Shown here: one piece after another, positions 5,854 through 58,788 of the stretch
Position numbering within the stretch: the first letter of the stretch is position 1
Layout of the letters: each line of letters begins with the position of its first letter
NCBI GenBank assembly: GCA_028280285.1
Contig: JANQMA010000042.1
Coordinates: forward strand, 3,572 to 67,571
DNA: 64,000 nucleotides
Origin: Candidatus Omnitrophota bacterium
GTDB taxonomy: Bacteria; Omnitrophota; Gorgyraeia; Zapsychrales; Zapsychraceae
Reading direction: 5' to 3'
Position numbers and translations under genes: made by a program
The notes under the pieces: model-generated
Database searches by the model: none
What the model was told of the DNA's origin: nothing
Seen by the model: the letters and a program-made list of their open reading frames with translations, nothing else

Positions 5854-5892
5854 CGATGTACTTTATCTGGGTAATTTGCTATAATCCCCTCC

Positions 5893-42697: not shown

Positions 42698-43465
42698 ATG
42701 AAATTTAGATACAAAAATAAGAAGTTTGATATTAGCGGCACCTCTAAAGGGGATCATATTTATAAAAGCATTTGTAATGACCGGGTGTTTTATGAAATCG
42801 ATCTCTTGGAATATGCTGCACAATTGGTCAAAGGCCCAAACAAACCGGATAGCCTGGCCATAGATGCCGGGGCGAATATCGGTAATCATTCTATATTCTT
42901 TCAATCATTTATTGTTGAGCATCTCATCGCGGTTGAGCCTAATCCGGATACATTGCCGATACTGAAAAGTAATTTAGAAAAAAATATTCAGCATTACACT
43001 ATATATGAAAATGGTCTTGGCGAATCGTTCGGGCAGGGTTCGATTATTTTACCTGACTGCGATAAAGGTAATAAAGGGATGGCGCAAATAGGCCTTGGGG
43101 AAGGTGAGATTCAGGTGATTACACTCGATGCATTGGTCAAGGATTGGCAGGACAAAAATAATTTAAATGGACATGTGGCACTCATTAAAATTGATGTTGA
43201 AGGGATGGAGCTGGCGGTGCTTAAAGGGGCAGTCGAAACACTTAAAAAATACAGGCCCCACTTGCTGATCGAGGCGACGACCCCTCCGAAATTAGAAGAG
43301 TTTAAGGAGTTTTTAAGTGAGTTTGGATACGGTCCTATCTGTCATTTTGCGGCTACACCTGTCTATCATTTTTGCCATAAACCTACACAATACGCCCGTC
43401 TTAAAGCTGCGTTTATGAAACTGTATTTGAAAATAAAAAGAAGGCTTCTGAAAATCTTTTCCTGA
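42698..43465 (+). CDS. FkbM-family SAM-dependent methyltransferase
   Basis: AIDAGANIGNHSIFF and HLIAVEPNPD motifs typical of FkbM-family methyltransferases. Confidence 0.55.
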   Translation: MKFRYKNKKFDISGTSKGDHIYKSICNDRVFYEIDLLEYAAQLVKGPNKPDSLAIDAGANIGNHSIFFQSFIVEHLIAVEPNPDTLPILKSNLEKNIQHYTIYENGLGESFGQGSIILPDCDKGNKGMAQIGLGEGEIQVITLDALVKDWQDKNNLNGHVALIKIDVEGMELAVLKGAVETLKKYRPHLLIEATTPPKLEEFKEFLSEFGYGPICHFAATPVYHFCHKPTQYARLKAAFMKLYLKIKRRLLKIFS

Positions 43466-43471
43466 TGAGCC

Positions 43472-44914
43472 ATGTTTTTTAATTCTTTTGAATATGCCGT
43501 ATTTCTGCCAGTTGTTTTTTTGATTTACTGGTTTATTTTACGTGAAAATCTTAAGCTCCAAAATATTTGGATTATCGCGGCGAGCTATTTTTTTTATGCC
43601 TGTTGGGATGTGCGGTTTCTTTCCTTAATTGTTATAAGTTCAACCGTCGATTATTCTGTTGGTTTAGCTTTAGGGCGCGCGACTACCTGCTTACGACGCA
43701 AACTCCTTCTTTGGATCAGCATTTTAACCAATCTAGGTATTCTTGGAATTTTTAAATACTACAATTTTTTTATTGATTCGCTTTTGCATTTAACCCCTGG
43801 TTTGCAGGATATTTTAGGACATACCACATTAAATATTGTCCTTCCCGTAGGAATTAGCTTCTATACTTTTCAGACTTTAAGTTATACGATTGACGTTTAT
43901 AAAGGTAAACTTCAACCGACCAAAGACATCGTAGCGTTTTTTGCTTTTGTAAGCTTTTTTCCTCAGCTTGTGGCCGGCCCGATTGAGCGCGCCACAAATT
44001 TACTACATCAATTTTCGCATAAACGGCAATTCGATTATGAAAAAGCGGCAGATGGGATGCGGCAGATTTTATGGGGTTTATTTAAAAAGACTATGATTGC
44101 CGATATCTGTGCGGTTTATGTCGATGATATTTTTTCCAATTGGACCGGATATTCCGGAAGCACATTACTGATTGGGGTGGTACTGTTTGCTGTTCAAATT
44201 TATTGCGATTTTTCTGGGTATTCTGATATCGCGATCGGAACAGCACGCCTTTTTGGCTTTAATTTAATGCGTAATTTTGCTTATCCTTATTTTTCTCGTG
44301 ACATAGCTGAATTTTGGCGAAGGTGGCATATTTCTCTGTCAACATGGTTTCGCGATTATCTTTATATTCCGCTTGGAGGAAGCCGTGTCTCTTTTGGGAA
44401 AAAAATCAGAAATGTCTTTATTGTTTTTATCCTGAGCGGGCTTTGGCATGGGGCCAATTGGACTTTTGTCTTTTGGGGGCTCATTAATGCGCTATTTTTC
44501 TTACCCTTAATTTTAGCAGGAAAGAATCGAACGCACACGGATCTTCCTGCAGAAGGACGAATGTTTCCTGGTTTGAGAGAATGCTTTCAAATCAGCGGCA
44601 CTTTTTTCATTACAAATATTGCTTGGATATTTTTTAGAGCCAATGATTTGAATCATGCTTTCGGGTATTTAAAACGATTATTTAGTATTAGTTTGTTTTC
44701 CAGGCCAGATGTGATTCCTCTAACCTCTTTTCTTGCGACGCTGGGAATCTTTATCATTATTGAATGGATACAAAGAGAAAAGAATCATGTCCTTGAGATA
44801 GAACATTTCGCATTGCCAAAGGTTATCAGGTGGTCTATTTATTCTCTACTCATTTGTGTGATGGGAGTGGGAATGCGCACCACAGAAACGGCGTTCATTT
44901 ATTTCCAATTTTAA
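43472..44914 (+). CDS. MBOAT-family membrane O-acyltransferase (AlgI/DltB-like)
   Basis: MFFNSFEYAVFLPVVFLIYW start and catalytic-His region RRWHISLSTWFRDYLYIPLGG. 480 aa. Confidence 0.85.
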   Translation: MFFNSFEYAVFLPVVFLIYWFILRENLKLQNIWIIAASYFFYACWDVRFLSLIVISSTVDYSVGLALGRATTCLRRKLLLWISILTNLGILGIFKYYNFFIDSLLHLTPGLQDILGHTTLNIVLPVGISFYTFQTLSYTIDVYKGKLQPTKDIVAFFAFVSFFPQLVAGPIERATNLLHQFSHKRQFDYEKAADGMRQILWGLFKKTMIADICAVYVDDIFSNWTGYSGSTLLIGVVLFAVQIYCDFSGYSDIAIGTARLFGFNLMRNFAYPYFSRDIAEFWRRWHISLSTWFRDYLYIPLGGSRVSFGKKIRNVFIVFILSGLWHGANWTFVFWGLINALFFLPLILAGKNRTHTDLPAEGRMFPGLRECFQISGTFFITNIAWIFFRANDLNHAFGYLKRLFSISLFSRPDVIPLTSFLATLGIFIIIEWIQREKNHVLEIEHFALPKVIRWSIYSLLICVMGVGMRTTETAFIYFQF

Positions 44915-44916
44915 CT

Positions 44917-45855
44917 ATGCATCTACACTTTACTAAAAAAATCAGTTTTTTTCTCTTATTTGCAGGATTATTCTATGTTATTTTCTTAGCTGTTTGTGTG
45001 AAATTTTTTCCTTCCTTTGCTAAAAATGTGAATTATAGAATAGGCTCATATGGTCATATGTATTCTCGCATCCAAGATTTAAAATCATATGGAAAAGTCG
45101 ACGTTCTATTTTTGGGATCTTCGCATGCTTATAGAGGATTTGATCCGAGAATTTTTAAAAGTAACGGTATCCGTTCTTTTACCCTTGGATCCAGTTCCCA
45201 AACTCCTATTCAAACAGAGATTTTGGCCCGTAGATATGTTGACATTTTGCAACCAAAATTAGTGATCTTTGAAGTTTTTCCTGACGTTTTCGAGGCCGAT
45301 GGTGTCGAGTCATCATTAGACTTAATAGCTAATGACACAATTGGATGGGATACGTTCAAGATGGCCTTAACACTGAAGCACCTTAAGACATTTAATACTT
45401 TGTTATATGGTTTGTTTCGACAAATTTTTCTATTGGATAGTAACTTTGTTGAAGAAAAAAAGAGAGGGGAAGATGAGTATATTAGTGGAGGTTTTGTTGA
45501 AAAAAGCATGTCCTATTTTGATAATTCCGAAACCTTTAAAGAAAAAAAATGGGAATTTAGGTCCTATCAAAAAGAAGCTTTTGAAAGAAGTTTGTTTTAT
45601 TTCAAAGGGAAGGATATAGATGTTGTGTTAGTGACGGCTCCGGTGACGAAAGAGCTTTACCGGTCTTATACTAACAATGAAGAAATAGATTCTTATTTTG
45701 AGAATATATGTGCGAAAAATTCATTGTGTAAGGGGTATTATAACTTTAATGAGATATTAGATCTCGATTCACATCTTAATTTTTACGACAAGCATCATTT
45801 AAACCAAAGAGGTGTAGAAATTTTTAATAAAAGTTTAATAGATAATGTTATCTAA
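44917..45855 (+). CDS. AlgI-partner protein, putative periplasmic O-acetyltransferase (AlgJ/AlgX/DltD-like)
   Basis: Starts 3 nt after the algI-like stop. N-terminal TM anchor, then DVLFLGSSHAYRGFDP (SGNH/DltD-like). Assigned mainly on synteny. Confidence 0.4.
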   Translation: MHLHFTKKISFFLLFAGLFYVIFLAVCVKFFPSFAKNVNYRIGSYGHMYSRIQDLKSYGKVDVLFLGSSHAYRGFDPRIFKSNGIRSFTLGSSSQTPIQTEILARRYVDILQPKLVIFEVFPDVFEADGVESSLDLIANDTIGWDTFKMALTLKHLKTFNTLLYGLFRQIFLLDSNFVEEKKRGEDEYISGGFVEKSMSYFDNSETFKEKKWEFRSYQKEAFERSLFYFKGKDIDVVLVTAPVTKELYRSYTNNEEIDSYFENICAKNSLCKGYYNFNEILDLDSHLNFYDKHHLNQRGVEIFNKSLIDNVI

Positions 45856-47288
45856 ATGTATTTAAACTTCCGTTCGTAATCAATTTCCATGCCCCAGCGG
45901 AAGCGGGCGTAGGGCTCGACGATGATGTCGATGTCGCGTGAGGTGAGTTTTCCTCTGAAATAATCGAAGAAAGCATCAGCACACATGTTTTGAAACTGAT
46001 GCTTGTCATGTGTGGTGACCGGCCCTTTTTTAATCTGAATCTCAAGTTTTGGTTTACGATCCCGGTCACTTAGATGAAAGTAGCCGGTGGTACGCTTGGC
46101 GATTTCCGGATGCGTGTAGATAATATCCTGAACCTGGGCAGGATAAATTTTTATATCATTCACTGCTAAAAATTCGACTTTCCCAAAGGCCAGCACTAAA
46201 GGCGAGTTAAAATGGGGTAGAAGTTTTTCGGTATTCAAGGCATCTTCCGCAAGGATCTGATTTAGTTTCGAATAAGGAATAATGTGCCCGGCATCTTTTG
46301 TATTATAGCGTATCAAAGGTAGCTGAGACTTTTTATTGAGTGTTGTGACGACAATCTCACCCTGCACCTCTTCGACATAAAAGGCCTGAGGAAAATAATT
46401 AAAGCACATCGGAAGGTAGGGAGGAGCATCTTTGCCTAAAAGCTCTTTACGCAGTTTTTCATTTTTCTGAAGGATTTTACGCAGACGGATTGTCTCCATA
46501 CTTTCAAAAAATAGATTAAAACCAAATTCCGACATGCCCATCGAAGAAAGGATTGAGCCTGTGGCCGGATCAGTCGGATTGATTTTTAAAAGACCTGAAA
46601 GGTATTCACGCAGACTCTCCGGCAGATAAACCCCGCCCAATACTAAATGTAGTTTGAGCGGATTTAAATCAATGCCGGCACTGATCGCCTCTTCCAGCGA
46701 GTTTTTGATAAAATAATTATCGCCGATAATAACGGTCTGATCATAATGATGCGACATGGTTTGGATCAGATAGAGCAAAGAGTCGGTACGCGGGCCAATT
46801 TCGGCAAACGTACAATCAATAAAACTCGGCACTTTGACGGAAAGGCAATTAATAATAAGTGTTTTTTCAGAGAGAATGTTGTAATAATGATCAAGAATAA
46901 GTTCCAGAAAACGCGTATTGCGTCTGATCTCCTCATGCGAGTTAATACCAAAAGAAAATGAGCCGGTTGCCCCGGATGACAGTAAAACAGAATTTACATC
47001 TTCGATATTCATTTGCTCGAGGATATTGCCAATATCCCCATAAATTAAACCTTTATCCGTTAACGGCACATTGGTTTTAAATGATTCGATTGATGTAACA
47101 TCGATGCTTTCAATATCTGTCTTTTTACTTAAAAAATCTTTGTAAGGTTGCACATGACGGAAGGCGTGGTAAAACATCTGGAGTGCACTGTCCTCAGAGG
47201 TGCCGAGCAAATGATCAGGGTTAACCGTACGGCAGTTTTTGATAATGCTATTATAGCGATTTTTTTTGATTCTTTTTAAAAGTACCAT
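45852..47288 (-). CDS. Adenylate-forming enzyme (LuxE/PaaK/CapK-like acyl-protein or acyl-CoA synthetase superfamily)
   Basis: 478 aa with LLSSGATGSFSFGI (an AMP-binding-like P-loop variant) and a LuxE-like N-terminal region. Confidence 0.35.
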   Translation of the reverse strand: MVLLKRIKKNRYNSIIKNCRTVNPDHLLGTSEDSALQMFYHAFRHVQPYKDFLSKKTDIESIDVTSIESFKTNVPLTDKGLIYGDIGNILEQMNIEDVNSVLLSSGATGSFSFGINSHEEIRRNTRFLELILDHYYNILSEKTLIINCLSVKVPSFIDCTFAEIGPRTDSLLYLIQTMSHHYDQTVIIGDNYFIKNSLEEAISAGIDLNPLKLHLVLGGVYLPESLREYLSGLLKINPTDPATGSILSSMGMSEFGFNLFFESMETIRLRKILQKNEKLRKELLGKDAPPYLPMCFNYFPQAFYVEEVQGEIVVTTLNKKSQLPLIRYNTKDAGHIIPYSKLNQILAEDALNTEKLLPHFNSPLVLAFGKVEFLAVNDIKIYPAQVQDIIYTHPEIAKRTTGYFHLSDRDRKPKLEIQIKKGPVTTHDKHQFQNMCADAFFDYFRGKLTSRDIDIIVEPYARFRWGMEIDYERKFKYI

Positions 47289-48427
47289 TGGATTTGCAAA
47301 TAATAAAGATCGTTGTAGCTGTCGAACTCGCTTAAAGATTTGCCCCAGAAAAATTGTCCGCCGACAGTCAAATCAAGACTTTCCGAGAGGCTATATTTCA
47401 CCTCCGGGTTTAAAGCCAAACTTTCACCTTCCCAATCATAGATAAGATATGTGTTAAAGTCAATCAGAGGTGTGAATTTATACTGCACCCAGAGCGATGT
47501 CAGGTGTTTTTTAAGAGATAGCAATTCGCGTGCGGTGTTAAAGTCGCCCAAAAAAGAGGCGGCATCATTATCATCCGCACCGCCATTGTAGAAATGCTCC
47601 ATTAAAATATAAATCTTGTCATTGACGTTATAATCTACGCCGATACTTGCCCGGGCAAACTCACGGTTATTATCAAAAATATTGTGTGTAATTTCCCCGC
47701 GCAAGCCTGCCTGTTTGATGTACCCATCAAAGGCAATGCCGAAAGAGACATTATGACGGACTTCAGCGGCGATGAGCGAGATATCATAGGTGCCGATAGT
47801 CTTATATATCTTGGCGCCATAGCTTTGTTTACTATTATGATCACCGGGGATATAAATCAGATTAATGCCAGAAAAATCGGAAATCGCATAGTTAAGGTTG
47901 ATGGCGTCCGCCCCGACGCGCTCGTCATGTTCAATATCAATTGGTCCTGGCGTATTAAATAAGTCGATGGGGGAGTAAAAGCGCATCTTACCCCAATCGA
48001 TGGCTTGCTTACCGATGACGGCTTGAAGCTTAGGGCTATAGTATTTGATGTAGGCGCGGTAAACAGCATGGCGGGAATAACGGTGGCCGGTGTCACTGGA
48101 CACCTTATCCCAATCCAGTGTGGCGGTATTATCTTGCATCTTAGAACGGGTAAAGGCAAAGTCGGATGTATTGCCGGCATCACTTAAGATAAGTTCATTA
48201 TCAAGGGCCACATACACTTGCCAATTGTCATTAAAGGCGTGATTGTATTTGATACGCAGACGATTGGTTAAAGCAAAGAGTTCTTCTTGCGTAGATGTTG
48301 ATTGTGTGCTGACCAGAAGCGACTTGTAATAGCCGGTGAGATTATGCCTGCCATCATGCTCATCAGCGTGAGCAATACCGGAGGCAAGAAGGTAGATCAG
48401 AACAATAACCGTTATTGTGCGTTTCAT
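47276..48427 (-). CDS. Outer-membrane beta-barrel protein (putative porin/export channel)
   Basis: Signal peptide ...GIAHA. Alternating amphipathic strands. C-terminal aromatic ...QIQWYF. Confidence 0.45.
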   Translation of the reverse strand: MKRTITVIVLIYLLASGIAHADEHDGRHNLTGYYKSLLVSTQSTSTQEELFALTNRLRIKYNHAFNDNWQVYVALDNELILSDAGNTSDFAFTRSKMQDNTATLDWDKVSSDTGHRYSRHAVYRAYIKYYSPKLQAVIGKQAIDWGKMRFYSPIDLFNTPGPIDIEHDERVGADAINLNYAISDFSGINLIYIPGDHNSKQSYGAKIYKTIGTYDISLIAAEVRHNVSFGIAFDGYIKQAGLRGEITHNIFDNNREFARASIGVDYNVNDKIYILMEHFYNGGADDNDAASFLGDFNTARELLSLKKHLTSLWVQYKFTPLIDFNTYLIYDWEGESLALNPEVKYSLSESLDLTVGGQFFWGKSLSEFDSYNDLYYLQIQWYF

Positions 48428-49095
48428 GATTGAATTTGTCCGTCTTTAAGCAGGATAAGCCGCTTGGCACGATCCATTATATCTTTGTCATGGGTTGAAA
48501 AGATAAATGTTGTTGTATGTTCTTCATTGAGTTTGAGCATCAGTTCAATGAGAGAGGCTGAGGTTTTTGAATCAAGGTTTGCTGTCGGTTCATCGGCCAT
48601 AATCACTTTCGGTTTTGTCACAATCGAGCGGGCAACCGCAACACGCTGTTGCTGTCCGCCGCTTAATTGATTAGGGAAGCGCGTTAAATAATCGCCAAGT
48701 CCAACTTGTTCCAGTATATCAATGGCGCGCAGCCGGCGTTGTTTAGCCGATATGTTTTGCAATAGTAAAGGATACTCGACATTTTCAATTGCCGTTAGGG
48801 TATTGATTAAATTATAGGCCTGAAAAATAAAACCGATGGTATGGAGACGAAAATAAGACAGCTGTTTTTCATTAAGTGTTGAGAGATTCTCTTCATTAAA
48901 GATCACCTCACCGCTGCTCGGTGCATCTAGTGCACTGAGGATATTAAGCAAAGAAGATTTGCCGCTTCCTGACGGGCCGGCGATCGCCGTGAATTCACCG
49001 CGTTCAATGGTAAAACTAACATCATTAAGCGCAGGCGTTGTTATGCCGCCAGAGGTCTTGTAGGTTTTGGTTAAATTATTAACTTGAATAAGCAT
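48424..49095 (-). CDS. ABC transporter ATP-binding protein (LolD/MacB-type)
   Basis: Walker A GPSGSGKSS, signature LSGGQQQRVAVAR, Walker B VIMADEPT. Confidence 0.85.
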   Translation of the reverse strand: MLIQVNNLTKTYKTSGGITTPALNDVSFTIERGEFTAIAGPSGSGKSSLLNILSALDAPSSGEVIFNEENLSTLNEKQLSYFRLHTIGFIFQAYNLINTLTAIENVEYPLLLQNISAKQRRLRAIDILEQVGLGDYLTRFPNQLSGGQQQRVAVARSIVTKPKVIMADEPTANLDSKTSASLIELMLKLNEEHTTTFIFSTHDKDIMDRAKRLILLKDGQIQS

Positions 49096-49099
49096 AGTA

Positions 49100-50060
49100 A
49101 TTAAAAAGTAAAAAAGAAAAATTAAAAGAGAAAATTAAAAAATTAAAATTGAAAAATGTATTTGGTCGTTAGTAATTGGTAATTATGTTAAACGGTTAAG
49201 TTTAAAAAAGTTGAAAATTTTACTAATATTATATTTTTCAAGTATATTTTTAAGACAGCCTTTAATTCCAAGTACTAATTACCAAGGCTCTAGACTAGCA
49301 GGGTAGTATCTGATAGTCTGGAAGCCTATGTTAAATAATAAGTTAACAAAATATAAGATTAAAAAAATTATACGTTGCTTTTGCTTCGATATTAATGCAA
49401 CTAAAACAGCTCTTTTACTCAATGTCAATCGTAATACAATTAACCGATACTTTAATCTCTTTCGGCAAAAAATATTTGAACACCAAACCAAAGAGTTTAA
49501 ACGTATACTTGGTAGTGTTGAAATAGACGAAAGTTACTTTGGTGCCAAGCGCCCACGCGGAGTTCCATCAAAATGCGGTCGTGGCACTCATCGTCAACCA
49601 GTATTCGGCATCTATGATCGTAATGGTCGTGTTTATACTGAAATAATACCAAACTGTAACCGTAAAACACTACGAAATATGATCTTAGGAAAAATAGACT
49701 CAAAGAGCGAAATTATTTCTGACTGCTGGAGCGGTTATGATGGCCTTGTTGATCTTGGATATAATAAGCATTTCCGTATTAACCATGATAAACACTTTTC
49801 AGCAAATAAAGCCCATATAAATGGCATCGAATCTTTTTGGAGTTTTACAAAAAGACGGCTATCTCAATTTAACGGTTATAAAGTTAATTTTCACCTCCAT
49901 CTCAAAGAATCAGAATGGAGATTTAATAAAAACCATGATATGTTAATCAAAGAGCTTGAGGCTTTAGTTTTTTAATTTTTGCTAGTCTAGAGCCTTACCA
50001 ATTACCAAATACAATTTTTATTTTTTCATTTTCACTCTTATTTTTTTACTTCTCATTTTT
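49100..50060 (+). mobile_element. IS1595-family insertion sequence (~0.96 kb) with imperfect terminal inverted repeats of about 50 bp
   Basis: Left end ...gtaaaaaagaaaaattaaaagagaaaattaaaaaattaaaattgaaaaatgtatttgg. The reverse complement of the right end is gtaaaaaaataagagtgaaaatgaaaaaataaaaattgtatttgg. Inner inverted repeat AAGGCTCTAGACTAGC at 49289-49304 and 49992-50007. Encloses a DDE transposase. Confidence 0.65.
49328..49975 (+). CDS. IS1595-family DDE transposase
   Basis: DDE triad context EIDESYF, ISDCWSGYDG, INGIESFWS. N-terminal HTH. 215 aa. Confidence 0.75.
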   Translation: MLNNKLTKYKIKKIIRCFCFDINATKTALLLNVNRNTINRYFNLFRQKIFEHQTKEFKRILGSVEIDESYFGAKRPRGVPSKCGRGTHRQPVFGIYDRNGRVYTEIIPNCNRKTLRNMILGKIDSKSEIISDCWSGYDGLVDLGYNKHFRINHDKHFSANKAHINGIESFWSFTKRRLSQFNGYKVNFHLHLKESEWRFNKNHDMLIKELEALVF

Positions 50061-51282
50061 AAATTGTCCTTATAGCCTCAACAGGCCTCAACTTTGATGC
50101 GTACCACGCCGGATAAATCGAGACGAGGCAGCTTATCACCAGGGTAACGGCCGTACAAATCATGGTAAATCCTAAATGAAACCTAGGTTTAATCACTGCA
50201 TCCATATAAAAAGATGTCAGGGCACTTGTAAAAGAAGAGAGATCCACCCCAGCCTGGGCAAAATACACGGATGTAAAATAACCTAAACTAACACCAAAAA
50301 CACATCCTAATAGTCCTAGTAAAAATGACTCTAAGCCGATCATTTGAATGATCTGTGGTGGGCGCGTCCCGACGGCAAGTAAGATGCCGAATTCGCGTGT
50401 CCGTTCAAGCACACCCATTAGCACTGTATTAAGAATACCGATCGCCACAACAATCATCACAATAATTAAGATCACGAAGACAAAGGCATTATCGAATTCG
50501 ATCCATTGTTTAAGAGACGGCGATATCTTTGACCATGGTAAAACTTCGAGTTCAGGGTTGTTTAGTTTATCTTGAATGGTTTGAGCTTTAGTTTCAGCGG
50601 TGCTGATATCCTCGACACGCAGACCGATATCGGTTACGCCACTCAGCACAAATAATTCTTGCGCGGCTTTAAGATGAATGACCGCAAGGCTTTTATCTAC
50701 TTCGTCCACTCCAGAATTAATAAGCCCCTTAATATAATAAGCGCCGGCCGCAATACTCCCGTCAATGGCCTGCGACATGATTACTACCTTTTCATCAAGG
50801 CCGATATTAAGATTTTGAGCGAGCCCCTTGCCGAGCACAATATCTTTAGCATTATTTTCTTCTAAAAATGATCCTTCTTTAACATGTTTATGCAGCTTGC
50901 TGATATTTTTTTCTTCGATAGGATCAACACCTAAAATCATCACCCCATGAGAACTTTCCGATGAGCTAATCAAACCGGCCGCACGGATACGTTTCGATAA
51001 ATGCACCGTAGGATTTTGAGTCTTGATGGTTTGTATAATCGCATTACTATCGGAAATATAGTTTTCAATCTTGGGATTATCGTGAAAACCTTTTTGGGAT
51101 ATTTCGATTTGGCTGGTAGTCAGCGCCGTGTAGTTGCGGATCATCGCTTCATGCGCACCTTCAATAAAAGACCAGATAAAAATAATCGCACCCAAGCCAA
51201 AACCGATGGCGGATATGGTGATCAGAGATCGTTTTTTATTACGCATGATATTACGCCATGCAATCCGGATAAAGGTAGTCAT
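50059..51282 (-). CDS. ABC transporter permease (FtsX/LolE-like)
   Basis: N-terminal TM, large periplasmic domain, C-terminal 3-TM FtsX bundle. The probable start is MTTFIRIAWRNI. Its stop overlaps the right end of the IS. Confidence 0.75.
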   Translation of the reverse strand: MTTFIRIAWRNIMRNKKRSLITISAIGFGLGAIIFIWSFIEGAHEAMIRNYTALTTSQIEISQKGFHDNPKIENYISDSNAIIQTIKTQNPTVHLSKRIRAAGLISSSESSHGVMILGVDPIEEKNISKLHKHVKEGSFLEENNAKDIVLGKGLAQNLNIGLDEKVVIMSQAIDGSIAAGAYYIKGLINSGVDEVDKSLAVIHLKAAQELFVLSGVTDIGLRVEDISTAETKAQTIQDKLNNPELEVLPWSKISPSLKQWIEFDNAFVFVILIIVMIVVAIGILNTVLMGVLERTREFGILLAVGTRPPQIIQMIGLESFLLGLLGCVFGVSLGYFTSVYFAQAGVDLSSFTSALTSFYMDAVIKPRFHLGFTMICTAVTLVISCLVSIYPAWYASKLRPVEAIRTI

Positions 51283-51439
51283 AGTAAAGGAAAAATTTGA
51301 TAAGCCTGTGTAAAGTTTAATGTTTAGTGTTTGAAACAAGTAAACCTTTTTTAAACTTTAAACTATAAACATTAAACAGAATTGTCTACATTACTCTTAC
51401 TATTAATATTGTATATCATCCCGTTGTCTTGAAAACGCA

Positions 51440-52198
51440 TTATTGAACTTTTTTTAAGTAAGGTAGAGAAAAGATATTATCTTCGATAGGTGTATTATAG
51501 GTGACATCGATTAATTTGATAATGGTTTGATGGCCTTCTTTGACCATTGATTTCATGGTCCATGTCTTAGGGATCATGCGGTCTGATACTTGTGCGATAT
51601 CGGAATATTCCAAGATTTTGATGAGCTTACCCCGCTCATTGTAGTACTCTTCTTTGAGCGGCACATAATCATTTTTACGGATAACCCTGATCAATTTTCC
51701 CCAGATAACCGGGGCATCCTCTTTGGGGGTAAATTCCACTGTGTAGGCATCATCTGTCTCAGCAATAATGGCATGGGTATAATCATTGATTATGCTGCTT
51801 TCGCGCACCAAGTCATCATTGGCAAAATCGCTGCCCATCCAGGGCTGAAGCATCATCGAAGGGGGGATTTTGATGATTCGCTCGACTTTGGGTAGATAAT
51901 TCCACATTTCATTTTCGATCCTAAGTGTCCCAATACCAGCCTCTTTGGGAGGATTGAGGATACGAATAAATGCCTTATCGCGGTTTTTCATGTATACTTG
52001 TAATGTGAGTTGCCGTTGCCACTTAGGGGTGATCACCTGCATGGTATAGGTGCCCTGATTTGTGTGGCCGCGCATTAGGTCATCTGAGGCCTTAACAATG
52101 TCGCGGGCAGTTAAAGGGCCCTGTGCAAAGCCCGCTGAAGGGAGGATCAAAAGACCTGAAATAAGGATAAAAATTTGTGCTATCTTCATAATTGACAT
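51440..52198 (-). CDS. LolA-like outer-membrane lipoprotein-sorting/carrier protein (exporter-associated)
   Basis: Signal peptide, then a beta-rich domain of about 230 aa resembling LolA-like proteins. It is co-oriented with the ABC exporter. Confidence 0.5.
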   Translation of the reverse strand: MSIMKIAQIFILISGLLILPSAGFAQGPLTARDIVKASDDLMRGHTNQGTYTMQVITPKWQRQLTLQVYMKNRDKAFIRILNPPKEAGIGTLRIENEMWNYLPKVERIIKIPPSMMLQPWMGSDFANDDLVRESSIINDYTHAIIAETDDAYTVEFTPKEDAPVIWGKLIRVIRKNDYVPLKEEYYNERGKLIKILEYSDIAQVSDRMIPKTWTMKSMVKEGHQTIIKLIDVTYNTPIEDNIFSLPYLKKVQ

Positions 52199-52233
52199 AG
52201 TGTTACGGTTATGTTAACATAGCACCAACTATT

Positions 52234-52950
52234 ATGCAAACTTTTATCTTCAAAAAAGTAGACCACTCGGACAGGGCCTTGATGGATGCCATTTTTCACC
52301 TGCGTTACCAAGTATATGCCCACGAGTGCGGGTTTATTAATCCGGCTGATTATGTGGATCAGCGCGAAGTAGACAAATACGATGCGCAATCCGTACATTT
52401 TGCCGCCATCAATCAGGATGATGATGTGGTTGGGACTATGAGAATTATTTTACCGGGTGAATATCCGCTTCCGATCCAAACACATTGCCCCGATATTCAA
52501 ATCGATCAAGATCCGCGTGAGCAATTGCCGCAAATCCAATTTGGCGAAATTTCAAGGCTTGTTATTAGCAAGCACCTGAGAAGGCGTAAAAATGATGGAC
52601 AGTACTACGAGCCGCAAATTGAAGATAAAGAAGTAGAGAATGCCTCTGGAGAGAAGTTTCTGCGTCGTTCAAAACCAATGGCGTTCGGATTATACCGGGA
52701 GATGTATCAAGAGTCCAAACGTTTAGGTATCACACACTGGTACACACTTATGGAAAAAAGCCTTTGGTTACTTTTACGCATCCATGGATTTACATTTGAG
52801 TGCATTGGCGAGACGGTAGATGTGTATGGTCCGGTTAATCCTTATATTGGTAAAGTTGAAAGCATTGAATTAGAAATCCAAAGAAAATTTCCTCAATTTT
52901 ATGAATATCTCTTGCAAGAGCAGGACGCCGAGAGAGATACAATTATTTAG
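52234..52950 (+). CDS. N-acyl amino acid synthase-like GNAT (FeeM/autoinducer-synthase fold; PEP-CTERM/exosortase-associated type)
   Basis: FHLRYQVYAHECGF and GTMRIILPGEYPLP motifs. 238 aa. Divergently transcribed from the LolA-ABC operon. Confidence 0.55.
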   Translation: MQTFIFKKVDHSDRALMDAIFHLRYQVYAHECGFINPADYVDQREVDKYDAQSVHFAAINQDDDVVGTMRIILPGEYPLPIQTHCPDIQIDQDPREQLPQIQFGEISRLVISKHLRRRKNDGQYYEPQIEDKEVENASGEKFLRRSKPMAFGLYREMYQESKRLGITHWYTLMEKSLWLLLRIHGFTFECIGETVDVYGPVNPYIGKVESIELEIQRKFPQFYEYLLQEQDAERDTII

Positions 52951-52963
52951 CCGTTAGGGTTTT

Positions 52964-55558
52964 ATGGCCACTTTGCCACAAGACATTTTTACTGTCTTTC
53001 GCGATTCTGCGCAAACATGTTCCAACCAAGCGGCGCTTACATTTAAAGACGCCGACCATAGTTATACAAGCTATTCCTACCAAGAGCTTTCGATTAAAAT
53101 TCAAAATTTTGTCGCCACCTTAAACGAATATGGGATTGGGAAAGGAGACAAGGTCGCGCTTCTTTTATCCAATCAACCGGAATTCCCCATTGCTTTTTTT
53201 GCGCTTATGTCGCTTGGGGCCATTGCCGTGCCCATAGATGTGCAATACTCACCGAAGCAGGCCGCAGGCATTATGGATCATTGTGAGGCCAAATTGCTTT
53301 TATCAACTACCCATCTCTATAATAATGTTCATGAGAGACTTCATATTGATGTTTGCTTAATCGATCAGCTTAATTGGAAAGACAATGTCCAACCGATTGA
53401 CCATATTGATGTCGATCCGGATGACACGGCCGTGATCTTTTATACATCAGGGACAACCTCAGCTCCGAAAGGAGTGCAGCTTTCGCATCATAATATCTTG
53501 ACGAACTATCAGGCGTTGGCCCGGTTTGGGCTTATGAGCCAGAGGGACGTGTTTATCTCAATTTTGCCACTTCACCATGCCTACGCGTTTACAACGACAA
53601 TGTTGTCCCCCCTTTTAATGGGGGCCCATATTGCTTTTGTTAAAGGTCTTTCTTCAAAAGAACTTTTAGAATGTATGAATGCTGTCGGTGTGACTGTGTT
53701 TATCGGTGTTCCGCAGTTATTTATGTTATTGCATCGTTCTGTTTGTGAGCAGCTCAACAAGTTAGGCTTTTTCCAAAGGTCGTTGGTTGAATTGACCGGC
53801 CTTTTTAAAAGGAAACTCAAAAAGAAATTTGGCGGGAGTTTACGTATTATGGTGTGTGGCGGAGCGAAAATTGATACCCAGATTGCCCGGGATTTCGATG
53901 CGTGGGGATTCAGCTTTTTAGAAGGTTATGGATTGACAGAGACCGCGCCGGTGGTCAGTTTTAATACAATTGCGGAAAGAAAGTTTGGGTCGGTGGGCAG
54001 ACCGTTAGAAGGGGTTGAGGTGAAGATCGAAAGTCCTGATGATGAGGGGATCGGCGAGGTCCTTGTACGCGGAGGCAATGTAATGCAGGGGTATTATAAG
54101 GACCAAAAGAAAACCGATCAGGTGATTATCGACGGATGGTTTCATACGGGAGATTTGGGGTATTGCGACAAAGATGGATTTTTGTTTTTAACTGGACGTA
54201 AGACGGAAATGATTGTCTTGCCGTCGGGTAAAAATATTTTTCCTGATGAAGTGGAGCAAGAGTACGGCACAACGCCCTTTGTAAAGGAAATAGGGGTGTT
54301 GGAATATGCGGATGAAATCGTTGCGCTTATAAAACCGGATGAAAGCTATTTTAAAAAGCAAGGTGTTGTTCAAATTCGCGACCGTCTTAAATGGGAGATT
54401 GATAATATCTCCGAGGGACTCCCATCATATAAACGGTTAAAAGGATTTAAAGTTATAACCGATGATTTGCCACGCACGCGTCTGGGAAAATTAAAAAGAT
54501 ATGAGTTGGTTGGTATTTATGCACAGGAGCAGGACAGGGCCTTAGAAAAAAATACAGAGTTATCCAAAGCAGATAAGAAAATATTAACATCGCTTAAAGA
54601 GCGCGCGCTTGTCATTATGGTCGAGAAAATGAAAAGAGAGGTTAAATTATCTGATCATCTTGAATTAGATTTGGGGCTTGACTCGTTAAATAGGGTTGAA
54701 TTTCTTCTGGAATTACAAGAAGGGCTCAACCTGACGCTTGATGATGAAATGATGGAAAAGTTTTTTCGTTGCATGACTATCGGTGAGCTTCTTGAAACAT
54801 TGGAAGAGTGTGTCGGAGAAAATTTTAATGATAATAAGGCTTCTTCGCAACGCGTTCAGTGGCATGCCCTTCTCGATGAGGAATTAGCAGAAGATACAAA
54901 GTGTAAGATAAAGCTTAAATTTGGCTTTTTCAGTACTTTTTTTAATTTTGTTCTGGTTATATTGATTAAACTGCTTTGTCGAATTTTCTTTTCTTTAGAG
55001 GTCCATGGTCGTGAACATTTGCAAAAAGATAGGCCTTTTGTTTTGTGTCCCAATCATGTGAGCTATCTTGATGCACTTTTATTGGTTGCGGCTTTACCGA
55101 TGAGTGTTGTTATGCAAACATACTTTTTAGGTTTGAATATGTTTTTTGAAAATGCATTGATCAGGCCGTTTATATCAGTAATGCGGCTTATTCCGATTGA
55201 GATTAATTATAATTTGGTTGAGGCGCTTAAGTCGTGTGTATACGTTTATAAATCTGATAAAAATATTTGTTATTTTCCGGAGGGGCAGCGTTCAATCGAT
55301 GGGGAAGTGCAGGACTTTAAAAAGGGAATAGGCATTCTTGTATCAGAATTTCAGATACCGGTTATCCCGGTTTTTATCAAAGGGGCTTTCGAGGTTTGGC
55401 CCAGGACGCGCAAATGGCCGCAGCCTGGCAAGGTGACGGTTACATTTGGCTCTGTTCAGGATTATGGTAGGCAGTGTTCGGCAGCAGAGGCAGCGGATGA
55501 GCGCTATGTGGATATTGCCCGTCGACTGCGTAATGAAGTTCTTAGCTTGCGTGGATGA
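52964..55558 (+). CDS. Tridomain acyl-CoA/ACP ligase (AMP-binding) - acyl-carrier-protein - lysophospholipid acyltransferase (PlsC) fusion
   Basis: Domain 1 (AMP-binding): FYTSGTTSAPKGV, YGLTET, TGDLGY. Domain 2 (ACP): phosphopantetheine site LDLGLDSLNRVEF. Domain 3 (PlsC): HX4D PNHVSYLD and FPEGQRS. Confidence 0.8.
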   Translation: MATLPQDIFTVFRDSAQTCSNQAALTFKDADHSYTSYSYQELSIKIQNFVATLNEYGIGKGDKVALLLSNQPEFPIAFFALMSLGAIAVPIDVQYSPKQAAGIMDHCEAKLLLSTTHLYNNVHERLHIDVCLIDQLNWKDNVQPIDHIDVDPDDTAVIFYTSGTTSAPKGVQLSHHNILTNYQALARFGLMSQRDVFISILPLHHAYAFTTTMLSPLLMGAHIAFVKGLSSKELLECMNAVGVTVFIGVPQLFMLLHRSVCEQLNKLGFFQRSLVELTGLFKRKLKKKFGGSLRIMVCGGAKIDTQIARDFDAWGFSFLEGYGLTETAPVVSFNTIAERKFGSVGRPLEGVEVKIESPDDEGIGEVLVRGGNVMQGYYKDQKKTDQVIIDGWFHTGDLGYCDKDGFLFLTGRKTEMIVLPSGKNIFPDEVEQEYGTTPFVKEIGVLEYADEIVALIKPDESYFKKQGVVQIRDRLKWEIDNISEGLPSYKRLKGFKVITDDLPRTRLGKLKRYELVGIYAQEQDRALEKNTELSKADKKILTSLKERALVIMVEKMKREVKLSDHLELDLGLDSLNRVEFLLELQEGLNLTLDDEMMEKFFRCMTIGELLETLEECVGENFNDNKASSQRVQWHALLDEELAEDTKCKIKLKFGFFSTFFNFVLVILIKLLCRIFFSLEVHGREHLQKDRPFVLCPNHVSYLDALLLVAALPMSVVMQTYFLGLNMFFENALIRPFISVMRLIPIEINYNLVEALKSCVYVYKSDKNICYFPEGQRSIDGEVQDFKKGIGILVSEFQIPVIPVFIKGAFEVWPRTRKWPQPGKVTVTFGSVQDYGRQCSAAEAADERYVDIARRLRNEVLSLRG

Positions 55559-55644: not shown

Positions 55645-56511
55645 ATGGGAAATAAAAAGATATTTCAGAGCTTACGTAATGCGCTTTTAACGCTTGTCAG
55701 TTACCCGCCTGTTTTTATTCCATTTGTTGTTATTGCCTTTGTTCAGCTTGTTGTTTTGGAAATCCTTTATTTTGTACCACGTTACCCGCTTAATATTTTC
55801 TTTGAGCCTATTATTGCTAAGCTTTGGGGAGAGCACTTTCTCCATTACCCATTTAATATTGCTCTTTTACCCAAATTATTTCAATATACGCAGGCCCCAA
55901 TTTATCTATTTGTTACTAGTTTTCTCATAGGGGTTGGAATTAATACTATTTGCAAAATTAACAATGATGAGAAGGTAACATTTGGTGGCGTGTTTAAAGA
56001 TACACTTAAGCATTATGTGCATATTTTTACCGCTGCATTTATTGCGTTTGCCTTGGTATTGGTGTTTTCCGAAGTCTACGAGCTTCTTATCAGAAAGGCG
56101 CTAACAATTGATCCAAGGATCGGAAATAAATATAAACTTAAACTTATTGTTAAAATTTTGATTTTAGAAGGAGCCCCTTATTTTAATCTTTTAGCGAGCG
56201 TCTTTATAACAACTTTGTTTGCCTATGTTATCCCGGTGATTGTTATAGCCAACAAGAAAGTTTTTCCGGCTATAGCAGAGAGTTTTAAAACGTTGTTTGG
56301 TGCCCCGTGGTTTACTTTTATGGTTGTTTTTATTCCTACACTTATCTATGTTCCAATTTTGATGTTGCGTGGGGGGGCAGGTTTAAGTTTTTCTATTCCG
56401 GAAATGAGTATTGTTTTGCTCGTTATTAGTATATTCGCCATGGTATTTATTGATGCGATTATCTATACAACTCTTTCAACATATTATCTAACGAAAAAGG
56501 AACAATCATGA
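55645..56511 (+). CDS. Integral membrane protein, hypothetical
   Basis: 288 aa with 6-8 TM helices and no recognisable motif. Confidence 0.4.
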   Translation: MGNKKIFQSLRNALLTLVSYPPVFIPFVVIAFVQLVVLEILYFVPRYPLNIFFEPIIAKLWGEHFLHYPFNIALLPKLFQYTQAPIYLFVTSFLIGVGINTICKINNDEKVTFGGVFKDTLKHYVHIFTAAFIAFALVLVFSEVYELLIRKALTIDPRIGNKYKLKLIVKILILEGAPYFNLLASVFITTLFAYVIPVIVIANKKVFPAIAESFKTLFGAPWFTFMVVFIPTLIYVPILMLRGGAGLSFSIPEMSIVLLVISIFAMVFIDAIIYTTLSTYYLTKKEQS

Positions 56512-57482
56512 AAAAAATTATAATTGTATTTATCATTATCTTGGCCGCTATTTTTGCTGTTTTGACCTTTATGGGAAAAGAGGGAGGGCATGATGCTGAG
56601 AAGGAATTGTGGAACATAGCCCAAGAATTTAATAAAATAGCTGCCGATCCAGAGGCGACCCCGGATAATGCCTATGATGCGCTTGAGGAAAGGTATGAAC
56701 AGTTTATTAAAAAATATTCTAAGGCAGAAATTGCACCTCAGGCCTATCTTACCTATGCACGGTTAAAGGTACTGCGTAAAGATTATACGGAAGCCAAAAG
56801 ATTGTATGAAGAGCTCATTGCAAAATATCCTGACAATAAAGCCGCTAGTTTGGATGCATTGCTTGAAATCGGTAAAATTCAGACTATTGAAAAAGATGAT
56901 TTGGGTGTTTTGGATACCTATCAACGTGTTATCCGTGATTATCCGACAACAGAGATTGGTCTTAGAACACCGCTTTTGGTAGCGCAGTATTATCTGGACC
57001 GTAAGCAAAACAATCTTGTCGAAAAATCATTTAAAGAAGCGGCGGCGCATTATGAAAAATTGGCTGAGAAGGAAAAGGGCAAGCCCTCAGGATTCTATGC
57101 TCTTCAATACTTAACTGTTTGCTACATTGCGCAACAAAATTGGGATAAGGCCTTGGAAACGTATGAAGCCTCACTGCTGGGATACGCTGATTTAAATGTA
57201 TGGACACCGGAGAGTTTGTTAAAATTGGTCCGTGCCTTAAATACGATTTCGGCTACACAAAAGAAATCTCTAGACTATCCAATTAATCTTTACAGTAAAT
57301 TTATTGAAGAAAAACCAGAGCACCCCTTTACGCCAATTCTTCAAAAGGTCATTGAAACCTTAAAGCAGTTAAAAGCGAAAGGAGCCATTTCTCCTGATAC
57401 GACGGTTGAGTCTTTAAAGCAGGCAGTTGAAGATGCTGCCAATGAAGCGGCGGCGGAAGTTGTCCCTCAAACAACGGAGTAA
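56508..57482 (+). CDS. Membrane-anchored TPR-repeat protein
   Basis: N-terminal TM. TPR-like helical repeats (YLTYARLKV, AKRLYEELIAKYPDNKAA...). A/E-rich tail. Confidence 0.5.
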   Translation: MKKIIIVFIIILAAIFAVLTFMGKEGGHDAEKELWNIAQEFNKIAADPEATPDNAYDALEERYEQFIKKYSKAEIAPQAYLTYARLKVLRKDYTEAKRLYEELIAKYPDNKAASLDALLEIGKIQTIEKDDLGVLDTYQRVIRDYPTTEIGLRTPLLVAQYYLDRKQNNLVEKSFKEAAAHYEKLAEKEKGKPSGFYALQYLTVCYIAQQNWDKALETYEASLLGYADLNVWTPESLLKLVRALNTISATQKKSLDYPINLYSKFIEEKPEHPFTPILQKVIETLKQLKAKGAISPDTTVESLKQAVEDAANEAAAEVVPQTTE

Positions 57483-57483: not shown

Positions 57484-58788
57484 ATGGAGGATTTGGGCCA
57501 GTCTTATTTATCGCGGCTTTCACAGACTGAGCTTTTTCAGGAAATTGCCACCATATGTGCTGCGGTCAATACGGTCGTATCAACCAATGAGTTGCTCGCT
57601 GTGTCTTTAGAAAATGTTCTTAAGCTTTTTAAAGCGCAAAGAGGCTCTATATTTATTCTTAATGATAAAGAAGATGAGTTAGAATTACGAGTTGCCGTTG
57701 GACTTGGCGGAGATGAACAAAAGGCTATTGTTAAACGTATGGGTGAGGGGTTTGTTGGGCAGGTTGCCCAAACAAAAGAGCCGATTATTGTTGATGATAT
57801 CGCACAGGATAAACGTTTTAAGGATCACAAAAGTAAAAATGGCTATAAAACATCTTCCTTTATTTGTGCTCCACTTCTTCTTAAAGATCAGCTTATCGGT
57901 GTTATCAATATTACGGATAAAGATTCCGGACACAAGTTTCTTACCAATGAATTGCAGTTGCTTGATTTTATCGCTTCACAAATTGCGCTTAATTACCGCC
58001 GGATTATTCTGTACCGCAAGTTTCAAACAGTCGTTAAGGAGACACAATCTCTGAAAGATAAGCTGGGTGAAACCGGCGAAGAAACTGCTCATTTAAAAAA
58101 GCAAATTATGATTCAGGAAAAGCTAGCGACGATCGGAAAGTTGGCTGGCGGCATTGCGCATGAATTTAATAATCCGCTTGACGGGGTTATGCGCTACACC
58201 AATCTTTGTCTTGATCAGATTCAAGATGATGAAGTGGTGCGCGGGTATCTGATGGAAATCAAGCAGGGGCTCAACCGTATGGCGATTATTGTGCGCAATC
58301 TTTTGCGGTGTTCACGCGACGATGTTTTGAGTCAGGAGAAAGTCAATTTAAAAAGTGCTTTGGGCCGGGCGCTTTATAATTTGCAAACGGACTTTTCACG
58401 CAAAGATATTGAAATCGTCGATGAAGTGCCGGATGAATTGCCGGACTTGATTGATCTTGGGCTTGAAAGGATCCTGGTTAATTTAATTCGTAATGCCATT
58501 GATGCCATCGAAGAGAAGGGCAAGATCTCGATTACGGCTCAATTTGAAAATGATGTGTTGATGTTTAATGTGGCGGATAACGGCATCGGCATTGCTCAAA
58601 CAAAAATTAATGAGATCTTTGAGCCGTTTTATACAACTAAAGATATTGATAAAGGCTGTGGCTTAGGATTAACCATTATTGGTGAGATAGTTAAAAGTTA
58701 TGATGGTAAGATCGATGTAGAGAGTCAGCCGGACTGCGGAACAACGTTTACCGTGCGCATTCCCCTGGAAAGAGAAGACAATGAGTAA
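57484..58788 (+). CDS. Soluble GAF-domain sensor histidine kinase
   Basis: GAF domain: GSIFIL...GQVAQTKEPIIVDD...VINITDK. HisKA IAHEFNNPLDGV. HATPase N/G boxes LIRNAIDA, DNGIGI, GLGLTI. Confidence 0.75.
   Translation: MEDLGQSYLSRLSQTELFQEIATICAAVNTVVSTNELLAVSLENVLKLFKAQRGSIFILNDKEDELELRVAVGLGGDEQKAIVKRMGEGFVGQVAQTKEPIIVDDIAQDKRFKDHKSKNGYKTSSFICAPLLLKDQLIGVINITDKDSGHKFLTNELQLLDFIASQIALNYRRIILYRKFQTVVKETQSLKDKLGETGEETAHLKKQIMIQEKLATIGKLAGGIAHEFNNPLDGVMRYTNLCLDQIQDDEVVRGYLMEIKQGLNRMAIIVRNLLRCSRDDVLSQEKVNLKSALGRALYNLQTDFSRKDIEIVDEVPDELPDLIDLGLERILVNLIRNAIDAIEEKGKISITAQFENDVLMFNVADNGIGIAQTKINEIFEPFYTTKDIDKGCGLGLTIIGEIVKSYDGKIDVESQPDCGTTFTVRIPLEREDNE

Follow-up and report, generated by a model that had tools for sequence, protein, structure and literature searches.

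A candidate acyl-lipid synthesis and export module conserved beside the PEP-CTERM genes of Omnitrophota exosortase loci

Introduction

Exosortases were predicted in 2006. To our knowledge, the attachment partner of their PEP-CTERM protein substrates is still unproven, and the co-travel of N-acyl amino acid synthase (NAS) genes with exosortases is still unexplained. Here we describe a locus in which an NAS gene is followed by the gene of a fused ligase, acyl carrier protein (ACP) and PlsC-type acyltransferase, the tridomain protein, and is divergent from the genes of a LolA-like protein, an ATP-binding cassette (ABC) transporter and an outer-membrane β-barrel. The module lies on a 64,000-nt stretch of DNA, the window, which comes from Candidatus Omnitrophota bacterium (assembly GCA_028280285.1, contig JANQMA010000042.1, positions 3,572-67,571 of the forward strand).

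The closest described biosynthetic systems are the exosortase-associated NAS of family TIGR03694, whose link to exosortases was published by Craig, Cherry & Brady (2011, J Bacteriol 193:5707; cited in PMC11072679 and PMC7293339). In Escherichia coli, an enzyme from Neisseria meningitidis with this annotation yields N-3-hydroxyacyl-ornithine and -lysine (PMC9762135); these products are of the lyso-ornithine-lipid (OlsB) type, with a free side-chain amine, and a PlsC enzyme would complete them. In a planctomycete, an NAS cluster with a PEP-CTERM gene makes the stieleriacines, N-acyl tyrosine derivatives that change biofilm composition (PMC7293339), and disruption of the NAS of Methylomonas LW13 abolishes a polysaccharide band (PMC11072679). 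An earlier note on this DNA had called the system biochemically undescribed and tied to exosortases by co-occurrence only; in view of these characterised family members, and of a link published in 2011, that statement was too strong. In the accounts available to us, the published link concerns mainly Proteobacteria and one planctomycete, and comes without a ligase-ACP-PlsC fusion or a LolA-like/ABC/barrel exporter.

Other parts of the module have relatives in better known pathways. A GNAT-type N-acyltransferase and a PlsC-type O-acyltransferase act in a two-enzyme logic in the OlsB/OlsA and GlsB/GlsA pathways and in the OlsF fusion, whereas Aas and LplT-Aas fusions carry an ANL ligase and a PlsC domain on one polypeptide. 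For transport, the relevant precedents are LolCDE-LolA-LolB, MacAB, and the DUF1302/DUF1329 cassettes of Proteobacteria (with a BNR protein and an RND pump), the last of which have been proposed from cofitness data to export envelope components (bioRxiv 10.1101/072470). Our literature search found no paper describing this module, the tridomain or LolA-like/ABC/barrel partner of the NAS, or PEP-CTERM systems in Omnitrophota.

A conserved divergent unit

The two divergent halves of the module form one conserved unit, as the earlier note had supposed. A metagenome scan with the NAS alignment gave 64 loci, and the counts below are taken from those with enough flank. In 24 of 40 loci the NAS gene is directly followed by the tridomain gene, and in 20 of 35 a LolA-like gene lies 5′ of the NAS gene; the barrel gene is present in 14 of 21, as is a gene for a protein with six transmembrane (TM) segments, and the PaaK-like gene in 13 of 21. 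In 16 loci from other samples, non-redundant at 95% nucleotide identity, barrel, ATPase, permease and LolA-like genes on one side and NAS and tridomain genes on the other keep an identical order and orientation. Since these loci retain the six-gene core at 37-75% amino-acid identity, the module is more than a chance arrangement.

The neighbourhoods of four tridomain homologues (41-58% identical; loci L002-L005) share a common layout. Its 5′ part runs from exosortase, EpsI and sugar transferase genes (not always present) through PEP-CTERM genes to an optional ThiF gene; the minus strand carries an optional PaaK-like gene, then barrel, ATPase, permease and LolA-like genes; on the plus strand one or two NAS genes precede the tridomain, 6-TM and tetratricopeptide repeat (TPR) genes and an optional set of GAF histidine kinase, sigma-54 response regulator and PocR-GAF genes. 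Spacing is tight, with 13 nt between NAS and tridomain, ATGA-type overlaps at ATPase/barrel and 6-TM/TPR, and a divergent gap of 35 bp (52199-52233), the length given before. The open reading frame (ORF) map reproduces all seven previously listed genes at their positions, and their domain calls hold (Table 1).

The physical link to the exosortase system, also proposed earlier, is real: the exporter operon borders directly on one to four PEP-CTERM genes, both in the window and in 14 related loci. The module had been called self-contained within 45852-55558; that does not stand, because synteny extends past 55558 to the 6-TM, TPR, GAF kinase, sigma-54 regulator and PocR-GAF genes. The conserved unit exceeds this interval, and it stands in tight physical linkage with the genes of exosortase substrates.

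It could be argued that there is no shared pathway here at all, the tridomain protein being an Aas-like phospholipid recycler and the transporter a generic MacB/Lol-type pump, brought together in an island of surface-polysaccharide genes. The broad family-level distributions and the Aas-like PlsC domain are what such a view would predict. It appears improbable to us in the face of the 16 syntenic loci with their overlapping or near-abutting genes, and of a crude neighbour-joining (NJ) tree in which 18 of the 22 module-linked tridomain proteins group together, apart from the non-module ones. It is also at odds with the distant locus L146 (NAS 33% identical), where a PEP-CTERM gene and two NAS genes are accompanied by a LolA_like protein that also matches DUF1329 and by a 501-aa barrel homologue (hhalign probability 97.5%), and where an MMPL/RND lipid-type exporter replaces the ABC transporter. 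NAS, LolA-like carrier, this barrel family, some inner-membrane pump and PEP-CTERM protein are therefore a theme assembled at least twice.

Table 1. Features of the module and its surroundings (positions in the window; aa, amino acids)
Feature	Position	Strand	Basis and remarks
rpoN (sigma-54)	10322-11686	-	edge of the island of extracellular polysaccharide (EPS) genes
Exosortase, 8-TM EpsH family, subtype unclassified	39018-39836	+	TIGR02602 172.6 bits, cutoff 105.6
EpsI-family exosortase partner	39836-40468	+	TIGR02914 110.8 bits, cutoff 42.8
Sigma-54 -24/-12 site, perfect consensus TGGCACGCTTATTGCT	40697-40712	+	consensus match alone
Polyprenyl glycosylphosphotransferase (EPS priming sugar transferase)	40786-41631	+	TIGR03025 308 bits
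PEP-CTERM substrate protein, THxN family, tail ...TVPEPASMVLFGTGLLGAAVRRKFIG	41746-42573	+	NF038125 95.4 bits, cutoff 85; regular expression on ORF tails
PaaK/LuxE-fold adenylate-forming enzyme, accessory module member	45852-47288	-	478 aa; profile and structure model
Outer-membrane β-barrel, 18-strand	47276-48427	-	383 aa; signal peptide; C-terminal ...QWYF
ABC ATPase, LolD/MacB-like	48424-49095	-	PF00005; Walker A, signature and Walker B intact
IS1595-family insertion sequence, IS1016-sized	49276-50004		729 bp; permease-ATPase spacer
Transposase of the insertion sequence	49328-49975	+	215 aa; NF033547 145.8 bits; antisense to exporter operon
Type VII ABC permease, FtsX C-terminal and MacB periplasmic domains	50059-51282	-	407 aa; PF02687, PF12704
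LolA-like periplasmic protein	51440-52198	-	PF17131 181 bits; Sec signal peptide, no lipobox cysteine
N-acyl amino acid synthase, exosortase-associated family	52234-52950	+	238 aa; TIGR03694 185.7 bits, cutoff 111.95
Acyl-AMP/ACP ligase, acyl carrier domain and PlsC-type acyltransferase fusion	52964-55558	+	864 aa; Pfam
Conserved 6-TM membrane protein, no known family	55645-56511	+	288 aa; six predicted TM segments
Membrane-anchored TPR protein	56508-57482	+	TPR Pfam matches; N-terminal TM segment; syntenic
Cytoplasmic GAF histidine kinase	57484-58788	+	no TM segment
Sigma-54-dependent response regulator, PrsR-like	58781-60187	+	TIGR02915 410 bits, below cutoff 503
PocR-GAF cytoplasmic sensor protein	60180-61199	+	PF10114, PF13185; syntenic in L002-L004

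The N-acyl amino acid synthase

The assignment of the first plus-strand protein to TIGR03694 is borne out by a search with that model, in which it scores well over the cutoff, and as in the described systems of this family the gene sits in an exosortase/EPS locus beside PEP-CTERM genes. The protein also passes Pfam FeeM and Acetyltransf_5, matches no OlsB model, and has eight residues (R24, E31, F34, D47, R70, E105, S107 and R108) that are invariant in 31 homologues. It shares its fold and an N-terminal cluster of conserved residues with the LuxI-type acyl-homoserine lactone (AHL) synthases, which are also its best PDB sequence matches (6wn0, E 5.5e-5; LasI, E 4e-4). It differs from them in lying below the Pfam Autoind_synth gathering score (20.1 versus 24 bits), in having no partner in the window, where no LuxR-type or autoinducer-binding gene was found among the scanned ORFs, and in belonging to a family annotated, and elsewhere shown, to be NAS. 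The GNAT protein belongs to the exosortase-associated NAS family and not to LuxI proper. By analogy with family members from other organisms (PMC9762135, PMC7293339), the window enzyme may produce long-chain N-acyl amino acids.

The window has one NAS gene. Some module loci have two tandem paralogues (L003, 8492-9989; L005, 8441-9947), which are 34-43% and 56-62% identical to the window protein; the sequences hint at two head-group or acyl specificities.

The tridomain protein

In the tridomain protein, Pfam recognises AMP-binding (residues 12-378), AMP-binding_C (429-509), PP-binding (559-612) and PlsC Acyltransferase (678-806) domains. The motifs YTSGTT..PKG and GYGLTET, the A10 lysine K509, the carrier serine S574 (in LGLDSL) and H698x4D703 are invariant in 22 homologues, and all three domains therefore look catalytically competent, as judged from sequence. 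A fatty acyl-AMP ligase (FAAL) identity was considered for the ligase domain and found no specific support, its PDB matches being generic acyl-CoA ligases. The model TIGR03098, which we take to be that of the XrtA-associated acyl-CoA ligase, is not among the best 25 of the 117 NCBIfam matches of the protein; those 25 score at least 168 bits and lie under their own cutoffs.

In combining an ANL ligase and a PlsC HX4D motif on one chain, the protein resembles Aas, and the PlsC domain alone finds its best match in an Aas-type acyl-[ACP]--phospholipid O-acyltransferase (PRK08633, 89 bits). It differs from Aas and the LplT-Aas fusions in that the domain order is reversed, the ACP is built in, the full-length scores fall far under the equivalog cutoffs (PRK08633, 253 versus 1221 bits; PRK06814, 206 versus 1349 bits), and one subclade is embedded in exosortase loci. 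The module as a whole shares its two-enzyme logic with the OlsB/OlsA and GlsB/GlsA pathways, and an exosortase-annotated NAS makes an OlsB-type product (PMC9762135). In contrast with those pathways, the O-acyltransferase here carries its own ligase and ACP, and its PlsC domain scores about 20.3 bits against each of OlsA and GlsA, where the cutoffs are 300 and 260.

A LolA-like/ABC/barrel cassette

The minus-strand domain calls made earlier hold. The LolA-like protein matches 9tp6 (E 3e-19) and 3buu (E 1e-15) in the PDB and, having no NCBIfam match, is assigned by Pfam LolA_like (PF17131) only. The permease ORF is listed as 50059-51339; its true start is probably the ATG at 51282, because orthologues have 407-408 aa. 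With four TM segments (residues 19-37, 266-284, 311-329 and 371-389) in the FtsX arrangement, a large periplasmic domain and an ABC_tran ATPase, the system is of type VII (MacB-type). Structure tests were used for the 383-aa barrel, as for the 478-aa protein discussed below, because neither has usable family matches: a sequence search of PDB, Pfam and NCBIfam gave nothing significant for the barrel, which was resolved by structure prediction alone. The predicted fold, the signal peptide and the C-terminal aromatic residue agree with an 18-strand barrel of the OprD/AlgE/Wzi type. A FadL- or LptD-like identity was rejected on the basis of the structural neighbours.

Like LolCDE-LolA-LolB and MacAB, the cassette combines a LolD-like ATPase with a type VII permease that has a periplasmic domain, and its carrier is soluble and of LolA fold. 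It departs from the Lol system in its single permease gene, in scores under the Lol equivalog cutoffs (lolCE TIGR02212, 145 versus 362 bits; LolD TIGR02211, 235 versus 308 bits), and in a carrier that is PF17131 and not LolA proper; in place of LolB or TolC, it has an 18-strand barrel in the outer membrane. The combination of barrel, LolA/LolB-like protein and inner-membrane exporter is shared with the DUF1302/DUF1329 cassettes, and one member of the barrel family matches Pfam DUF1302 just as the L146 carrier matches DUF1329. The sequence relation is faint, however, and the pump of the module is ABC and not RND, with no BNR protein. Earlier the cassette had been read as a lipid exporter to the outer membrane. 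Such export is suggested by analogy, and the barrel resembles channels for substrates and polysaccharides, not known lipid transporters.

A different cargo can be envisaged. When exosortase cleaves a PEP-CTERM protein, the free amine of an aminolipid (e.g. ornithine- or lysine-headed) might serve as nucleophile, and the Lol-like cassette would then be a second dedicated lipoprotein pathway, taking C-terminally lipidated proteins, and not free lipid, to the outer membrane or cell surface. Substrates of archaeosortase ArtA become lipid-anchored, which offers an analogy. The direct abutment of PEP-CTERM genes on the exporter operon, and a permease and ATPase most similar to LolCE and LolD next to a LolA-like carrier, would fit well, as would the Orn/Lys lipids with a free side-chain amine made by an NAS of the same annotated family (PMC9762135). 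The argument is entirely inferential, however, and quite unlikely in our view: N-acyl tyrosine derivatives are the products of other enzymes in the NAS family, both the exporter cassette and the tridomain family are also found where there is no exosortase, and the barrel is not LolB-like.

In locus L004 the barrel gene is split into two ORFs (4648-6294) and adjoins a bAvd/23S-rRNA-IVP-like gene. Genes of this kind are typical accessories of diversity-generating retroelements.

An insertion sequence in the exporter operon

The gene order of the minus-strand operon is as first described, and its continuity is not: an IS1595-family insertion sequence (IS), overlooked until now, splits the permease gene from the ATPase gene. 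It has a DDE_Tnp_IS1595 transposase, 25-nt terminal inverted repeats, whose exact 17-nt core occurs nowhere else in the window, and a target duplication of 8 bp (CCAAGTAC/CCAAATAC, matching at 7 of 8 bases). In the closest orthologous locus, L002, the permease-ATPase spacer is 102 bp and has no IS. The insertion breaks no coding sequence, and the genes downstream of it can be aligned with their orthologues over the whole length; it may nevertheless be polar on the ATPase, barrel and PaaK-like genes. Sigma-70-like hexamers near the left end (49334-49305 and 49395-49367, minus strand) aim toward the ATPase gene and, to judge by position, could drive it. The element is surrounded by AT-rich 78-nt arms (49098-49175 and 49995-50072) that are 71% complementary; these may be a palindromic intergenic remnant used as insertion target, or a low-complexity coincidence.

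The PaaK-fold accessory enzyme

No Pfam family passes for the 478-aa protein at the far end of the operon, and its description as LuxE/PaaK-like is right at the level of fold. A 42-sequence profile finds PaaK (E 7e-15) and LuxE (E 2e-4) in the PDB. The AF2 model (pLDDT 90.8) has PaaK1 as a Foldseek match (E 7.5e-17, TM-scores 0.65/0.72) and also superposes on NatL2, ClxA and AjiA1, which are PaaK-family AMP-ligases in the PDB. Together with this predicted fold, a P-loop SSGxTG, a hinge (I/L)RYxTGD and a C-terminal catalytic lysine place the protein in the PaaK/LuxE branch of the ANL enzymes; SSG 104-106, RY 327-328 and K474 are invariant.

In other module loci a ThiF/E1-like adenylyltransferase, not present in the window, lies beside the PEP-CTERM genes or the exporter (L003, 680-1483; L004, 3694-4521; L005, 3332-4192). 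This gene and the variable occurrence of the PaaK-like gene suggest interchangeable carboxylate-activating accessories.

The surrounding EPS/exosortase island

The window is essentially one EPS/exosortase island, apparently governed by sigma-54. After rpoN come Wza-like, GNVR, AAA_22 and AAA_31 genes, many glycosyltransferase genes, Wzx, Wzy and sulfation genes, and the exosortase, EpsI and PEP-CTERM genes follow 10-13 kb upstream of the module. The exosortase passes the generic EpsH model only, falling under the cutoffs of XrtA (181 versus 208 bits), XrtD and XrtW. Sulfation of the EPS is suggested by the genes at 29702-33969, which encode a sulfotransferase, an adenylyl-sulfate kinase and a 960-aa protein whose N-terminal domain is GH123-like. 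Between the PEP-CTERM gene and the module, at 42698-45855, lie genes for an FkbM methyltransferase, a DltB-like MBOAT and a 312-aa single-TM protein; they are missing from the equivalent position in L002, and this is probably an inserted cassette for EPS O-acylation and methylation. Rfam and tRNA scans of the window gave no matches.

This setting invites the idea that the acyl lipid is joined to the EPS chain as primer or anchor, with the ABC transporter, LolA-like carrier and barrel handling a lipid-linked glycan. Group 2 capsules, which end in a lyso-phosphatidylglycerol terminus, would be the model. The predicted structural neighbours of the barrel include AlgE and Wzi, the module is embedded in a Wza/Wzx/Wzy-type locus, and the Methylomonas NAS mutant lacks a polysaccharide band (PMC11072679). 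We regard the idea as very improbable all the same: the locus already encodes a Poly_export (Wza-like) protein, a flippase and Wzy, the module contains no glycosyltransferase, and LolA-like cavities bind acyl chains, not glycans.

The perfect sigma-54 site lies 74 bp 5′ of the sugar-transferase and PEP-CTERM genes and is the sole match without mismatch in the window. The total of sigma-54-like sites across the window is at chance level, so that this site alone is noteworthy. A one-mismatch site lies 5′ of the Wza-like gene (12045-12060, plus strand), and none was found at the NAS/LolA-like junction with up to two mismatches allowed. From these sequence matches, sigma-54 looks to control the whole island. 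RpoN-dependent PEP-CTERM genes have been published, and the pattern of the island agrees with them.

Downstream genes and regulation

Neither Pfam nor NCBIfam has a match for the 6-TM protein. Its gene keeps synteny with the tridomain gene in L002-L005, and it has the conserved motifs PRYPL, HYP and GAPY; it is, speculatively, a candidate flippase or other membrane partner. The genes 3′ of the tridomain gene overlap in places by 4-8 nt. The GAF kinase ORF is listed with a TTG start at 57427, and its orthologues align from M20.

The regulatory genes bear on a further interpretation, in which the LuxI-fold NAS would make a hydrophobic N-acyl amino acid autoinducer with a chain supplied by the ligase and ACP. 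The ABC/LolA-like/barrel system would secrete it, and the cytoplasmic GAF kinase, sigma-54 regulator and PocR-GAF protein would sense it and activate the genes for EPS and PEP-CTERM proteins. The residue cluster and PDB matches that the NAS shares with AHL synthases speak for such a signal, as do three sensor and regulator proteins that are free of TM segments and syntenic with the NAS in most loci, the sigma-54 promoter before the PEP-CTERM operon with rpoN in the same window, and the effect of stieleriacines on biofilms (PMC7293339). Nonetheless, the conserved and motif-intact PlsC domain would have no role, an exporter spanning three compartments with a dedicated carrier is heavy for a diffusible signal, and the NAS has neither a LuxR-type receptor in the window nor an above-threshold Autoind_synth match. 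On balance we consider signalling unlikely.

Proposed pathway and its weak points

The module is best described as a conserved accessory unit of an Omnitrophota-type exosortase/EPS locus, whose product and cargo can be proposed from its genes. Tentatively, and with somewhat less than even confidence, we suggest that its product is an acyl lipid with an amino-acid head group, that it carries acylated cargo to the outer membrane, and that this is coupled to the assembly of PEP-CTERM proteins and EPS at the surface. Gene content, motifs, folds and synteny are observed directly in an uncultivated host lineage, and from them we infer the steps past domain chemistry, including every substrate and the direction of transport.

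From the biochemistry of its family, the soluble NAS would take a long acyl chain from its carrier and attach it to an amino acid at the alpha-amine. The intact motifs of the tridomain protein suggest that it would adenylate a free fatty acid and load it on its own phosphopantetheinyl arm at S574. The chain might then be handed to the NAS, or the membrane-associated PlsC domain, with its H698x4D703 motif, might esterify a hydroxyl acceptor. With the 3-hydroxyl of an N-(3-hydroxyacyl) amino acid as acceptor, the reaction would obey the logic of OlsB/OlsA and give an ornithine-lipid-like diacyl product; with a lysophospholipid, it would be a re-acylation as by Aas. Speculatively, the 6-TM protein may flip the product to the outer leaflet. 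By analogy with LolCDE-LolA and the DUF1302/DUF1329 cassettes, the homodimeric type VII ABC transporter would extract the acylated molecule from that leaflet, and the soluble LolA-like carrier would take it to the 18-strand barrel. Synteny suggests that the GAF kinase, sigma-54 regulator and PocR-GAF sensor would tie expression to the PEP-CTERM and EPS genes.

Several observations weigh against this pathway. At the level of chemistry, the PlsC domain is nearest to Aas-type lysophospholipid acyltransferases and not to OlsA or GlsA, and the characterised NAS enzymes stem from other organisms, none of them from this Omnitrophota clade. At the level of transport, the barrel has its predicted structural neighbours among channels for solutes and polysaccharides (OprD/Occ, AlgE, Wzi) and not in FadL or LptD. 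Moreover, type VII ABC transporters need their substrate in the periplasmic leaflet, and no flippase was identified.

The association itself also has limits. Ligase-ACP-PlsC proteins (27-38% identity, at least 90% coverage) are common in Planctomycetota, Nitrospirota, Acidobacteriota, Spirochaetota, Gammaproteobacteria and others, with no NAS, LolA-like, permease or barrel neighbour, and two more tridomain homologues, one in another Omnitrophota genome, lie among housekeeping genes. A profile search of genome contigs with the tridomain alignment, a negative control and a poor census, returned mostly generic AMP-binding enzymes and non-module tridomain proteins, with one module locus. The possibility that the protein is an ordinary Aas-type enzyme is thus in part sustained at the level of the family, which is widespread without NAS, exporter or exosortase; one subclade alone is linked to the module. 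Recruitment of a paralogue would fit, because the 18 clustered module proteins stand next to non-module Omnitrophota-type copies in the NJ tree. Much the same holds for the possibility of a generic ABC system: in locus L151 a distant barrel homologue belongs to a LolA-like-FtsX-FtsX-ATPase-barrel operon that stands by itself, with exosortase genes missing from its neighbourhood, so the cassette does occur alone. In L003 no exosortase was found within 10 kb of the module.

Finally, about 40% of the NAS-clade loci are without the module, and one high-GC lineage makes up most of these. In this lineage (L111, L113, L116, L120, L121 and L126) an NAS of the same clade, 45-50% identical, has another context, with a GntR regulator and fumarase-like genes 5′ and a MiaA-like P-loop protein and a protein of about 440 aa 3′; no exporter or tridomain gene was found in these loci.

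Biological meaning

To the known pairing of NAS and exosortase, this locus type adds a dedicated enzyme for fatty-acid activation and second acylation, a complete inner-to-outer-membrane carrier system for acylated molecules and a conserved set of regulators. It also gives a defined biosynthetic setting to a family of barrel/LolA-like exporters with a faint relation to DUF1302/DUF1329. A vague co-occurrence of NAS and exosortase thereby becomes a concrete hypothesis about the identity of the lipid, its possible export and its possible attachment to proteins or to EPS. If an aminolipid made by the module were indeed the nucleophile in PEP-CTERM cleavage, the module would supply the long-sought acceptor of the exosortase reaction.

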